DNA of 63,452 nt, filler included, from Dugesia japonica (lineage: Eukaryota): NCBI GenBank assembly GCA_001938525.1. It is 6 parts of 6 records of this genome, joined end to end, with 100 filler letters (N's around TTAATTAATTAA, not from the genome) between each part and the next. Parts side by side here need not be neighbours in the genome. Positions count along the whole stretch, not along the records: positions 10,718 to 21,196 come from MQRL01614732.1; 5 more parts are not named here. The stretch is one strand, 5' to 3'. This document shows, piece after piece, positions 13,058 through 21,197 of the stretch; the stretch's first letter is position 1, and the number at the start of each line of letters is the position of its first letter. A program made the translations under genes and the position numbers. Under the pieces are notes generated by a model that was given only the letters and a program-made list of their open reading frames with translations, did no database searches and was not told the DNA's origin.

Positions 13058-13512
13058 AGTAGAGGTAAAAATGCGGGATTAGAGGGACCACCCCCAACCC
13101 ATAAAATTATGGGTATAAATCATGATCCGGGAGTGGTAGCAAAAAACCTGCGAAAATTGAAGAAAAAATGGAAAAAAATGAAAAAAAGCGGTAAAATATC
13201 ATTTTTTTTCAAAAAGTGAAAAATTGAAAAAAAAATAAAAAAATTTTTAGGTTATGGTACTAGGACCAAATTTTTCTGGGTAAGACTTTAGGTCAAAAAC
13301 TGCTTAAGTTAAAAAAAATGATTGTGTTTGAAAAAAATTTAATTTATTTAGGCTATAGCACTAGGACCAAATTTTTTAGACAAAAATACATGGGTTAAAA
13401 ATTAATTGAGATTTTTTTTGGGTTGTAGGGCTGTGGGATGGGGATTGTAGGCTGTGGAATGGGGGATTTATTTGATTGATTGTTTAATAAGTGTAAAAAG
13501 TTTAATGATTTA

Positions 13513-13630
13513 TGAACTTGGGAGAAAAGTGACGAACTTGGGCGAAAAGTGACGAACTTGGACGAACAGTGGCGAAAGGTGACGAACGGCGACGAACTTG
13601 GACGAACAGTGACGAAGATGGGTGAACATG
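13513..13630 (+). repeat. Tandem ~10/20-bp GC-richer repeats (GACGAACTTGGGCGAAAAGT-like) upstream of the first viral ORF
   Basis: About 11 degenerate G(A/G)CGAA decamers in tandem. Confidence 0.85.
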
Positions 13631-13667
13631 AGAAATTTGATTAAACCTTATTTTTTCCTATTATAAA

Positions 13668-14279
13668 ATGGAAGAAAAATATATATTAAATAAAAATGGT
13701 AATTATACTAGTTTGAATATGAAAGAGCAAATTATTTTAAGTAAATATTTGGATAATTTATCAATAAATTTATCAATGAAACCAAATGAAATAGCAGATA
13801 AGATAGGAATTAGTACAAGACAATTAAATAAAGTTTTAAGAAAGAAGGATATTTTAAAACCAGCTACAAAGAAAAAGTCTGTTCCTAAAAGATTTACTTA
13901 TGATAATATGAAAGAAGTATTTATTCCAGATAAAGATGGTGGATATTATAGAAAATCTAAACAATCTCCATTAGAATTTAAACCTAAAAAAGAAAAGAAG
14001 ACAGTAGAAGAAAAGCAAAAACAAGAAACAGAAGAAATGAAAACTAAATTAATTGGAGCATTTCAAGATAAAATACAATATCCAAATATTAATCCAAATA
14101 ATTATAAAAATTTATTTAAAGAAAGACTTAAAGATGTTAAAGGTGGAGCAGTTTATGAAGATAAAGAATTAAATAATCTTAATAATTTTATTAGTAATTC
14201 TTTTAATAATTCTATTAGTAAAAGTAATAATAGTATACTAATGAGAAATTCAAGTCAATTAGATTTAAGAAGTGAATAA
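13668..14279 (+). CDS. Polinton ORF1, putative helix-turn-helix DNA-binding protein
   Basis: 203 aa. MKPNEIADKIGISTRQLNKVLRKK is an HTH-like pattern, followed by a basic region. Confidence 0.7.
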   Translation: MEEKYILNKNGNYTSLNMKEQIILSKYLDNLSINLSMKPNEIADKIGISTRQLNKVLRKKDILKPATKKKSVPKRFTYDNMKEVFIPDKDGGYYRKSKQSPLEFKPKKEKKTVEEKQKQETEEMKTKLIGAFQDKIQYPNINPNNYKNLFKERLKDVKGGAVYEDKELNNLNNFISNSFNNSISKSNNSILMRNSSQLDLRSE

Positions 14280-14313
14280 AAAAAGGGGTTTTCTTAAAAT
14301 GTTTTATTAATAA

Positions 14314-14670
14314 ATGGAGGAAGATATTTTAAAATTAGTTAAAGAAGATAAAATATTTCATAAAAAAGTAATAGAAGAATTATCAAAAATTGTTGATGGG
14401 TTTGAAATATGTGTAACTGAAAATGAAAAGAACCTGTTGAAAAGTTTTAAAAATTCATATTATAGTCAACAAATTTATAAAGAAGCTTATTTAAGACAAA
14501 ATAAAATTAAAGTAAAATATAATTATGAAGAAGAAAAAAATAATATTAAAGAATTATACTCTACGAGGGAGAAAATAAGTAATGAAAAGGTAAAAGAAAG
14601 AAATAAAAAGAAAATTATAACTAAACTTAAAGATGATGAAGTATTCTTTAAAAAAATAAAAGATGCTTAA
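14314..14670 (+). CDS. Polinton ORF2, hypothetical charged protein
   Basis: 118-aa intact ORF with TAAATG start, tightly packed in the gene array. Confidence 0.7.
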   Translation: MEEDILKLVKEDKIFHKKVIEELSKIVDGFEICVTENEKNLLKSFKNSYYSQQIYKEAYLRQNKIKVKYNYEEEKNNIKELYSTREKISNEKVKERNKKKIITKLKDDEVFFKKIKDA

Positions 14671-14687
14671 AAATATATATATAAGAA

Positions 14688-14960
14688 ATGGAAGAAGAAA
14701 TTACAAGTAATTCAAGTATATTAAGTAACATAAGTGATGGTATGATAAAATTATTAAAAAAAGAAGAAAATAAAATCAAATACCAAAACTTGATAATAAA
14801 TTTAATGGGTAAAACTAAATTTTACAAGAATATTATCTTTTCATCAATAGGAATTATAATACTAATTCTAATTTTAATTTCAATTTTAATTTACACCAAT
14901 CGATTAAAAATAATTGAATGGTTAAATAAAATTTACAAGACTAAAAATTTTTCCAAATAA
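14688..14960 (+). CDS. Polinton ORF3, small single-pass membrane protein
   Basis: 90 aa with hydrophobic IIFSSIGIIILILILISILIY. Stop codon abuts the MCP ATG. Confidence 0.7.
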   Translation: MEEEITSNSSILSNISDGMIKLLKKEENKIKYQNLIINLMGKTKFYKNIIFSSIGIIILILILISILIYTNRLKIIEWLNKIYKTKNFSK

Positions 14961-18576: not shown

Positions 18577-18626
18577 ATCATGAGATTCTCTATTCTAGTT
18601 CTAATTCTAAAACAGTTTATAATAAA

Positions 18627-19187
18627 ATGACTAAACATAGTACTAATATAACAGAAAATGAATTGATAGATTTAATAAATAGTGATAAATCCAAATCAAT
18701 AAAAATAGATGGTAAAAATTATTGGATTGGTAAAAAGACTAAATAAATATTAAAAAAGAAGCATGAAGGTGGAGTACACGAAGGTGGAGTATTTCCATTA
18801 TTAGCTTTAATACCTGGTATTTTAGCAGGAATAGGTGCAGCAGGAACTGCAGCTGCAGGAGTTGCAGGCGCAGCAGCAGGCATTGCTAAAGCAGTTGCCA
18901 ATTCACGTGAAGCTATTGGCAATCAGAAAAAGAATGAATTATTAGATCAACAGCTACAGTTAACTGGACAGCAAACAACAACACCACCCCAATCCACTGG
19001 CACTGGTATTTATTTAAATCCTTATCAAGGATCAGCTATTCATAAATACTTAAAGGGACAGTTAAATAAACCACTTGAAATAATCAATAAAAAGAAATTT
19101 AAAAAAGGGATAGAAATTATACCAAGTGGAAAAGGTTTATATTTAAATCCGTATTCACATGAACACTATTCTCAAAATAAAGCATAA
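18627..19187 (+). pseudogene. Adenovirus pX-like virion core/membrane-active protein (one internal TAA at 18744)
   Basis: ...HEGGVHEGGVFPLLALIPGILAGIGAAGTAAAGVAGAAAGIAKAV...GTGIYLNPY...GKGLYLNPY. Absent from the ORF track because of the stop. Confidence 0.75.
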
Positions 19188-19192
19188 AGAAA

Positions 19193-20404
19193 ATGACTGA
19201 TTGGATTGAAGATAGAATAAAAAGTTTAAAAGGACAAATTGAAGGAAGAGAGAAATATAACAAATTAATTCTTGAACAAGTTTATTTTAATTCATTTAGT
19301 TCTCAAGGTAATCTATTAGGTAATCTATTAGGTAATCAACTACAAGGTAATCAATTACAAGGTAATCTTTTACAAGGTAATCTTTTACAAGGTATTCTTT
19401 TACAAGGTAATCTTTTACAAGGTATTCTTTTACAACGTAATCTTTTACAAGGTAATCAAAATAATGTAAAACCTATTGTAAATCCTATTGTAAAACCTAT
19501 TGTAAAACCTATTGTAAATCCTATTGGAAATCCTATTGGAAATCCTATCAAAGAACCTATTGTAAAACCTATTGTAAATCCTATTGGAAATCATATTAAA
19601 GAACTTGTAAGCTATCTAACCAAGAATCTTGACAAGAATCTTGAAAAGAATTTTACAAAAGATATTGGAAAAGATTTTGGAAAAGATTTTGAAAAGAATC
19701 TTCTAAAGGATGATAGATTAAGAATAAAAAGAAAAGATTTAGAAGTTAGTAAAAAATATGATTTACCCAAGACTTTAACTCCTTATATTACTTATGATGA
19801 TAGTTGGGAAGAAGAAACTTTTGATTCTTTTTTAATAGGTTCAGATATTATTCATTTAAAACAAAGAATAATAAAAGATGAATTATATTATTATTTTCTT
19901 GTAAATAATGAGAAAGAAATACCATTTAATCAAGAAGTATTAAATTTAATGTTTGATTATGGTTCTAATGATGATCAAGCTAAAAGTATTTATTTAAAAG
20001 AATTTAATTTTACTATTCCACATTCTAGTAAATATATTAGAGCATGTAAACAAAAAGGAATATTTGATGAAGAATTTAAAAAATTAAAAAATCCTCCTGA
20101 ATATAAAGAAATTGACACTGTAAAGAAAAATAGAAAATCTATTATGGATGCTAATAGAGGTCTTGACAATGATGGTATTGGTGATGGTTTTAACGATGGT
20201 TTTGGTCTTGATAATGATAATGATAATGATATTAACAAGAACCCAATAAAGTTATTAGAGAAATTTGTAATAATTACTAGTGCAATAAAAGCTGGTCATG
20301 ATAATCTTGAAGATGATTTTTTAAAAATAATTAATAAACTATTGGATTCTAAAATAATAAGTAATGAAAAATATTCTAGGTTAAAGAAAAAGTACTTGGC
20401 ATAA
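19193..20404 (+). CDS. Conserved Polinton-associated protein with peptide repeats
   Basis: 403 aa with (LLQGN)n and (VKPI/VNPI/GNPI)n repeats. C-terminal NPIKLLEKF...IKAGHDN..DFLKIINKL resembles the DPNELxxRL..AGN motif of invertebrate Polinton proteins. Confidence 0.75.
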   Translation: MTDWIEDRIKSLKGQIEGREKYNKLILEQVYFNSFSSQGNLLGNLLGNQLQGNQLQGNLLQGNLLQGILLQGNLLQGILLQRNLLQGNQNNVKPIVNPIVKPIVKPIVNPIGNPIGNPIKEPIVKPIVNPIGNHIKELVSYLTKNLDKNLEKNFTKDIGKDFGKDFEKNLLKDDRLRIKRKDLEVSKKYDLPKTLTPYITYDDSWEEETFDSFLIGSDIIHLKQRIIKDELYYYFLVNNEKEIPFNQEVLNLMFDYGSNDDQAKSIYLKEFNFTIPHSSKYIRACKQKGIFDEEFKKLKNPPEYKEIDTVKKNRKSIMDANRGLDNDGIGDGFNDGFGLDNDNDNDINKNPIKLLEKFVIITSAIKAGHDNLEDDFLKIINKLLDSKIISNEKYSRLKKKYLA

Positions 20405-20425
20405 GCACGAGCGCAGCGAGTGCTT
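20403..20425. terminator. GC-rich hairpin at the end of the 19193 ORF
   Basis: AAGCAC-GAGCGCAGCGA-GTGCTT followed by a T-run. Function is inferred. Confidence 0.35.
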
Positions 20426-20517
20426 TTTACTTCTACAAGGTTACAAACAAACAAGGTTAAAGCAAAACTATAATAAATTGCTTTATAGAAACCTCACTCC
20501 CTACGCTCGCTCGGTTT

Positions 20518-21197
20518 ATGTCTCATCAATTCTTAATATTTGGTCAAGAACATGAATTAGAAACTAATTTAACAAGAGGTTTAAAATTAGAAGGTAGATG
20601 GGAAATTGGTTTAATTTGGCTTACTACATCAAACATGATTTTAAATATTAATAATAAAAATAATAAATACAAGATCAGTGGAATAGAAAAAAGACTAAAT
20701 CCTGGTGCTTATGAAATAAAACAGATTGGTGAAAAGCTGGCTCTAGATTTTCTAAAATTAACTTTTGATGTTTCTACAGGTAAAGCATTAATGACTTTAA
20801 AACCACTTGGTGGTGATAATATTGTCGAAATTATTAACAAAGATATTAAACTTGAATTTGATAATACTAGTTTCTTTCATACTATTCTAGGATTTAGTCC
20901 TAAAGAATATATTATTAAAGAAAACTCTACTTTCATTTCAGAAAATAAAATAAATATTATTGATGTAAATACAATTAATATTATTTGTAACATTGTACAA
21001 GGTAATTATTTAAATAATAAAGAATATAATCTATTACATAGTTTACCAATGGGTACAGTTCCATATGGTAACTGATAGACCAGCTAATCCAATTTATTCA
21101 AAAATAAATACAAATTTCATAACTAGAATAAAATTAAATATAGTAGATGAGAATTTCAACACTATAGATTTTGATGGAGAAAAAATAAATATACTAN
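20518..21197 (+). pseudogene. Minor capsid protein (penton, single jelly-roll), frameshift near 21070, cut by gap
   Basis: LEGRWEIGL, LNPGAYEI, ILGF, INIICNIVQGNY; continues in another frame as RPANPIY...IVDENFNTIDFDGEKINIL. Confidence 0.85.

Follow-up and report, generated by a model that had tools for sequence, protein, structure and literature searches.

We analysed a stretch of 63,452 nucleotides from the flatworm Dugesia japonica (GenBank assembly GCA_001938525.1), called the window here, which is AT-rich (GC 17-33% per kb); five identical N44-TTAATTAATTAA-N44 linkers divide it into six pieces. The piece at positions 10718-21196 (MQRL01614732.1) carries a cassette of nine genes that reaches the last base of that piece. 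This cassette is very probably what remains, 8.1 kb from the left end, of a canonical Group 2 Maverick-Polinton, belonging to a family known from planarian (Dugesia) genomes, that is now inactivated and truncated by the scaffold end. The genes all lie on the plus strand between 13668 (the first ATG) and 21196 and cover 7263 of these 7529 nt with gaps of 0-113 nt, in agreement with an earlier note on this DNA that had described nine co-oriented genes in ~8 kb. The features of the cassette and of the sequence that follows it are:

13058..13667, plus strand: left terminal region (putative left terminal inverted repeat (TIR) and promoter), with an AGTAG start and repeats
13668..14279, plus strand: open reading frame (ORF) 1, 203 amino acids (aa), basic, with a weak helix-turn-helix (HTH); Pfam ANT and Xre-like HTH matches at E 0.006-0.008, below the cut-off
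14314..14670, plus strand: ORF2, 118 aa, matching no family
14688..14960, plus strand: ORF3, 90 aa, one hydrophobic segment; a homologous ORF precedes the capsid gene in the Dugesia element uAdinto11140
14961..16370, plus strand: major capsid protein (MCP), double jelly roll (DJR), open frame with an N gap at 15116-15165; PF21738, E 1.3e-19
16383..17761, plus strand: zinc finger-PLA2-rve integrase, a single gene without chromodomain; one frameshift and two stops, with D, D and E present
17797..18576, plus strand: packaging ATPase of the A32/FtsK type with an open frame and a GKN Walker A; PF04665
18627..19187, plus strand: pX-like core protein, one stop; a single ORF in the Dugesia elements
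19193..20404, plus strand: ORF403, rich in repeats at its N-terminus and with a conserved helical motif at its C-terminus, open frame; no family or Atlas match
20518..21196, plus strand: penton-like minor capsid gene, frameshifted near 21070; the scaffold stops ~7 codons before the gene is complete
21197..21296, no strand: artificial scaffold linker N44-TTAATTAATTAA-N44, one of the five identical ones, at which the available sequence truly ends
21633..24670, plus strand: copy 2, with decayed MCP, zinc finger-PLA2-integrase and 5' part of the ATPase, on the next scaffold; DNA 64-76% identical to copy 1 (the cassette)

The earlier note had called the cassette near-intact with few lesions, and the MCP, ATPase and ORF403 frames are indeed open, but the integrase, pX-like and penton-like genes together carry five or more lesions that disrupt them. 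These are a frameshift between zinc finger and PLA2 near 16440-16510, integrase stops at 17174 and 17708, a stop at 18744 in the pX-like gene and the frameshift near 21070 in the penton-like gene. Beyond these lesions, one near-invariant position of the PLA2 active site is substituted. This Polinton copy is thus dead, inactivated by its lesions. Note that the GKN, rather than GKT, in the Walker A motif is not a further lesion: it occurs in both copies (17908-17910 region, and 24430 region in copy 2), in three Dugesia elements described below and in 8 of 99 other ATPase homologues, which indicates a family trait. We also rejected 16383-16544 as a separate gene, as homologues have it at the start of their integrase gene and it is part of a single ORF in uAdinto11140.

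The AGT-starting left end proposed in the earlier note is supported by several features. The end itself, AGTAGAGG, begins with AGTAG at 13058 and has a single occurrence in the window, and the GC skew switches at this position from -0.27 to +0.31. The region that follows contains a 52-nt internal repeat, a 21-nt tandem and a 10/20-nt tandem array. A decayed coding remnant on the minus strand (~11900-13057) halts exactly at 13057, and this abrupt stop supports a boundary at 13058. We take the remnant to be a hAT transposase from its motifs, an identity for which Pfam gave no support, and the Polinton would have inserted into an older host transposon. No right TIR, or other inverted partner of the left terminal region, is present in the window. 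Duplicated sequence also flanks three N gaps, at 15116-15165 (40 nt), 11084-11433 (59-136 nt) and 33571-33620 (68 nt); these duplications are most likely false products of scaffolding, which would make the gap in the MCP gene an artefact.

Among the virion genes, Pfam identifies the MCP and the ATPase. PF21738 matches the MCP with 71 bits against a cut-off of 27, 1179 relatives were found at E ≤ 0.001, the best metagenomic MCP relative has 44% identity, and an AlphaFold2 model of the 400 aa after the gap, built from a 112-sequence alignment, has a mean predicted local distance difference test (pLDDT) score of 91.7. Foldseek matched this model to the MCPs of PBCV-1, iridovirus and mavirus (E ~1e-10 to 1e-9), and a BFVD fold search returned DJR capsids at 7-16% identity with no close named relative; a PDB sequence search gave no match for the MCP or the pX-like protein. 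The ATPase matches Pox_A32 (E 9.1e-8, above cut-off) and its 99 homologues reach 62% identity. The pX-like protein, a putative assignment that matched no family, has a Gly-Gly site, a hydrophobic Gly/Ala stretch after it and GxG-(I/L)YLNPY repeats. ORF403, whose homologue occupies the same slot in uAdinto11140 and uAdinto15034, is probably a virion cement or core protein. Finally, in regards to the penton-like gene, its motifs are presumably those of a Polinton penton, and it is a putative penton gene. Its Atlas look-alikes score 0.96-0.98 and one such cluster carries Adeno_Penton_B in 18% of members, a recognition below the threshold of the tool; Pfam gave no match, BLAST gave none to the penton of the distant Polinton used as a control below, and a single-sequence fold reached a pLDDT of 29. 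At the other end of the cassette, ORF1 is probably an early DNA-binding regulator.

We then considered the two genes that a canonical Polinton would be expected to carry and that the cassette lacks, namely the protein-primed B-family DNA polymerase (pPolB) and the protease adenain. Their absence is real for the DNA seen, including copy 2 and the rest of the window, and this finding of the earlier note stands under three kinds of test. The window contains six stop-free and N-free stretches of at least 200 aa, all in the cassette; the longest on the minus strand of the cassette has 125 aa and the longest elsewhere in the window 147 aa. Since no free stretch of at least 200 aa lies outside the cassette genes, no intact pPolB or adenain ORF fits. 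In phmmer searches with the genes of L001 (JAAEQW010000241.1), a real but distant Polinton that was the one locus obtained from 141 candidates in a GTDB scan with the ATPase alignment and that served only as a control, the control queries recovered the window ATPase (2.8e-7), the integrase (1.4e-17) and even the decayed integrase of copy 2 (1.1e-4); the pPolB (best E 0.2) and protease (best 3.2) of L001 had no match in the window, a search that very decayed remnants could escape. Short family-specific pPolB and adenain motifs gave no match in the window in five of six cases, and the sixth gave a single one-mismatch match inside ORF403, off frame, while all three control motifs were found. Pfam, when run over 147 other frames of at least 55 aa, returned only three transposon-type matches, and it detected no helicase in these frames or in 12 cassette ORFs. 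We rejected Pfam alone as a test of pPolB absence, as Pfam and NCBIfam both miss the real 1243-aa pPolB of L001 (8262-11993), in which motifs A, B and C are present; claims of a missing pPolB that rely on such library negatives are therefore unsafe.

L001 itself deserves a remark. Its region 1550-11993 is a eukaryotic Group 1-type Polinton, with integrase, penton, MCP, adenain, ATPase and pPolB, on a contig from a metagenome-assembled genome (MAG) of Candidatus Omnitrophota, and its presence in a bacterial MAG is probably binning contamination in GTDB. A tblastn search of a phage collection gave no match.

Copy 2 cannot serve as independent evidence that the two genes are lacking. What the earlier note took for a contig end is the artificial linker that joins unrelated scaffolds, so copy 2 is not a neighbour of the cassette. 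Furthermore, copy 2 retains only the first ~110 profile positions of the ATPase before it is interrupted at 24671 by a pogo/Tigger-type transposon that is flanked by TA, has a TA-CAGTG end (transposase on the minus strand, DDE_1 E 1.2e-15 at 25374-25604) and extends to ~25900. It never reaches the protease and polymerase region and is thus uninformative on their absence.

What lies beyond the break is indicated by close relatives. With short motifs we searched ~4 million characters of the protein supplement of Buck et al. 2024 (PMC11071296), and we took the names of elements from the key that goes with it. Among the matches listed were three much closer elements, uAdinto11140 (contig MQRL01602776), uAdinto15034 (MQRL01281750) and uAdinto20531 (MQRL01196153), which Buck et al. 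name Dugesia endogenized adintoviruses (PMC11071296). Three segments counted by eye are 86-94% identical to uAdinto11140 or uAdinto15034. Specifically, the first 51 MCP residues agree at 48/51 positions with uAdinto11140 and 47/51 with uAdinto15034, the ATPase agrees at 78/91 with uAdinto15034, and the last 42 penton residues agree at 39/42 with uAdinto11140. Both of these elements match the gene order of the cassette from MCP to penton (PMC11071296), and they share with it the zinc finger-PLA2-integrase gene, the GKN ATPase, the pX-like and ORF403-like genes, the lack of a chromodomain and a decayed state. They differ in their first ORFs, in the repeat-rich start of ORF403 and in their lesions, and they reach past the penton. 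The C-terminal half of ORF2 resembles by eye the ORF that takes its place in uAdinto11140, whereas the slot of ORF1 holds a different HTH-like ORF in the Dugesia relatives. uAdinto20531 shares the MCP-integrase-ATPase-pX block with GKN; its entries stop short of the penton, and its contig carries, in another place, PolB pieces of a more distant type.

In both relatives that reach that far, the next entry after the penton is Adenain, followed by 2-4 ORFs and then DNA polymerase B; uAdinto15034 has further PolB pieces on its other side, with motif A- and C-type sequences. The place of both genes in the family lies beyond the scaffold end, adenain being the gene that would follow the break directly, and the linker directly after the penton-like gene argues for truncation. 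The family order would run from the left end through 2-3 small ORFs, MCP, zinc finger-PLA2-integrase, ATPase, pX-like, ORF403-like, penton and adenain to 2-4 accessory ORFs, pPolB and the right end, all expected on one strand. If this copy continued like its relatives, its missing right part would measure an estimated ~6-7 kb, judging by the ORF lengths of the relatives, and the full element ~14-16 kb. While gene content, lesions and truncation are observed in the DNA itself, several points weigh against this account. The sequence of this locus ends at 21196, so that its continuation is predicted from the relatives, in both of which the right-hand PolB is also cut at the contig end with only its N-terminal part left; no relative shows a full-length copy with a whole pPolB and both TIRs. 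Moreover, the gene order of the relatives is the order of entries in a FASTA file and their gene labels are automatic (Cenote-Taker 3; PMC11071296). ORF1 is unlike the first ORFs of the relatives, which makes the left end mosaic. In the 4 million characters searched of the supplement of Starrett 2021 (PMC8502044) the motifs had no match, and a search for Repbase names in papers gave unrelated matches only.

The earlier note had left two readings side by side, namely that the missing genes lie beyond the gap or that the cassette represents a compact lineage of integrating viruses that lacks a polymerase and may depend on a helper Polinton, and it held that the contig end prevents a decision. 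The relatives decide the matter at the level of the lineage in favour of the first, leaving a small chance that this particular copy was internally deleted. The helper-dependent lineage is scarcely credible. It draws on the lack of pPolB and adenain in the 8.1 kb seen and in the rest of the window, an absence that position explains fully with adenain next after the break in the closest relatives; copy 2 breaks off five genes earlier, and maturation-type sites are retained in the cassette. Copies with protease and pPolB to the right of the penton, which the earlier note had named as the finding that would overturn such a lineage, are listed for two of two relatives, with the proviso that both end inside the polymerase.

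An internal deletion in this copy that removed the right-hand pPolB module and left a non-autonomous derivative, mobilised by a helper from its own family, is improbable, although it is the strongest of the alternatives. A non-autonomous Polinton-type element without a long ORF does occur in this genome at 3567-6753, and Repbase elements with capsid and ATPase and without protease are on record (Polinton1_SM, Polinton2_SM and Polinton-N1_NV; Krupovic 2014 Table S1, PMC4028283). However, the cassette is collinear with PolB-bearing relatives up to its last base and bears no sign of deletion, and the 3567-6753 element shares only AGTA with its left end. Less probable again is a Group 2 element that has a primase-helicase replicase in place of pPolB beyond the gap. 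Replacement of pPolB by superfamily 1 or 3 (SF1/SF3) helicases is frequent in Group 2 (Bellas and Sommaruga 2026, 10.64898/2026.06.19.733378) and Meld19810 couples Alpha virion genes with Prim-S2H (Buck 2024, PMC11071296), but the contigs of all three closest relatives carry DNA polymerase B pieces, and helicase swaps usually accompany a tyrosine recombinase and not a DDE integrase (10.64898/2026.10.13.758929). A truncated canonical Polinton is therefore our preferred reading, and it also agrees with the strong link between DDE integrases and PolB reported by Barth et al. 2026 (10.64898/2026.10.13.758929).

In terms of classification, the truncated Polinton has the features of a Group 2 element: a PF21738 DJR MCP, an A32/FtsK ATPase, an rve integrase and a parvovirus-type PLA2. 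Assignment to Group 2 and not Group 1 is suggested by the PLA2, by the lack of a match to the Group 1-type MCP of L001 and by motifs in the MCP that we take to be those of insect hexons. The parvovirus-type PLA2 is common in Group 2 (PMC8502044, 10.64898/2026.06.19.733378). Alpha adintoviruses, the Group 2 Mayetiola type of Starrett 2021 (PMC8502044), likewise have a PF21738-type MCP, A32 ATPase, rve, PLA2 and pX-like domain. They differ in that their PLA2 is fused with the pX-like domain (PLA2X; PMC8502044), whereas in the cassette PLA2 is fused with the integrase and the pX-like protein is a separate gene, and in that their integrase has a chromodomain (PMC11071296) that is absent here. The wording of Buck et al. 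2024 for Adintovirus includes an integrase with C-terminal chromodomain (PMC11071296), which the cassette does not have; our placement is therefore among the Group 2 Polintons, even though Buck et al. call chromodomain-less relatives 'Adinto'. Four Schmidtea Polintons (Polinton-1_SM, -2_SM, Polinton1_SM and Polinton2_SM; 11.6-15.9 kb), compared by table entries only, have penton and ATPase as in the cassette, two with a protease and two listed without (Krupovic 2014 Table S1, PMC4028283), and the estimated full size is close to that of Polinton-1_SM (14,867) and Polinton-2_SM (15,944). Tlr1 of Tetrahymena, with rve integrase, capsid and ATPase and no pPolB or protease (PMC4642659, PMC4028283), is the known precedent for the polymerase-less lineage of the earlier note, but it carries a helicase of SF1 and its MCP is distinct, where the family of the cassette has pPolB and adenain. 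The cassette is also unlike polinton-like viruses (PLV; Aquintoviricetes, PgVV/TVS type), which have a PgVV-type MCP and are usually without rve integrase and protease, as it has an rve integrase, a Polinton-type MCP and, in its closest relatives, a protease.

The cassette adds a further decayed Polinton to a family for which flatworm contigs have already yielded catalogued members, and it is a good example of an absence created by a scaffold end. A true polymerase-less, capsid-bearing integrating satellite in animals would be notable, but the relatives rule this out as a lineage; a lack of pPolB or protease already has examples in Tlr1, in helicase-bearing Group 2 elements and in protease-less Repbase entries.

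An intact member of the family would presumably work as expected of Polintons in general. pPolB would copy the excised linear genome from its ends (PMC4028283, PMC11161782) and the rve integrase would insert the copied genome. MCP and penton would build the capsid and the ATPase would pack the DNA into any particle that formed. Adenain would cut core precursors at Gly-Gly or Gly-x-Gly, freeing the pX-like membrane peptide, PLA2 and integrase; such motifs flank PLA2 on either side and precede the hydrophobic stretch in the pX-like protein, and cleavage there is predicted from their position.

The zinc finger-PLA2-integrase gene is the one feature of the cassette for which the literature searched gave no description. 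Both rve (PF00665, E 2.8e-10) and parvoviral PLA2 (PF08398, E 9.7e-7) are above cut-off, and the three acidic catalytic columns of the integrase are conserved in a gene that is otherwise broken. We listed 120 of 332 integrase homologues (best identity 52%), ~30 of which are near-identical proteins of 423-426 aa that may come from few genomes, so that the counts that follow are not independent. PF08398 and PF00665 occur in one protein in 106 of the 120, and GxG stands at the PLA2-integrase junction in 98, which fits a dependence on protease. The strict zinc-finger pattern is found in 12, and GG-x(0-2)-D/N-L/I-Q precedes PLA2 in 43 of the 60 listed homologues with an N-terminal extension. The gene of the cassette ends a few codons past the last conserved motif and thus has no chromodomain; 67 of the 120 likewise lack a chromodomain tail, 33 have a tail of >40 aa and 20 were unscored. 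Note that the strict adenovirus cleavage consensus is present at the junction in only 18 of the 120, and we therefore term the sites maturation-like and not adenain consensus sites.

Conserved Gly-Gly and Gly-x-Gly motifs on either side of PLA2 suggest a protease-matured, virion-packaged integrase. We tentatively propose, as a possibility that falls just short of an even chance, that in a large clade of Polintons the zinc finger-PLA2-integrase chain is a polyprotein, which enters the capsid and is then cut by adenain at these motifs to free a membrane-lytic PLA2 that would serve entry and an integrase ready to insert the genome on arrival. As part of the same tentative proposal, such processing would be a DNA-virus parallel of retroviral Gag-Pol maturation. 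The alternative is a plain fusion with Gly linkers. A protease-matured integrase would itself argue that a protease is needed. No description of the fusion or its processing was found in the literature searched, with subscription papers and Repbase reports outside the search; the label that Buck et al. give to these proteins is just Integrase (PMC11071296). Polinton virions have not been observed (10.64898/2026.06.19.733378); if the proposal is true, processed integrase inside particles is predicted, which bears on whether Polintons move as infectious particles. Two homologues have other fusions, P0063 and P0224: one joins ATPase and PLA2, the other joins the MCP to another stretch, and either may be a gene-calling chimera. 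The stretch joined to the MCP in this pair is presumably a pPolB exonuclease.

Elsewhere in the window, the 3.2-kb non-coding element at 3567-6753 has AGTA...TACT ends and 1.07-kb inverted repeats (76% identical) with 49-nt tandem arrays, and its flanks AATGAC and AATGAT form a 5/6 target duplication; it resembles a Polinton-type element that is non-autonomous and belongs to a different family. Partial copies of it lie at 35780-36923 and 62769-63367, the latter also starting with AGTAG. Other transposon-related pieces are a DUF4817 HTH at 11434-11715, an HTH transposase piece at 43029-43397, a weak integrase-like match at 30127-30348 (domain E 0.005) and a frame at 9689-10370 that we take to be retroelement-like. 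A short exon-like stretch at 8138-8245 has no Pfam match, and its cysteine pattern is one that we assume to be a DSL (Delta/Serrate) domain, which would point to a gene of an animal host. Finally, 33047-39300 is filled with dense degenerate repeats with units of 42, 64, 190, 31 and 21 nt, some of them inverted.

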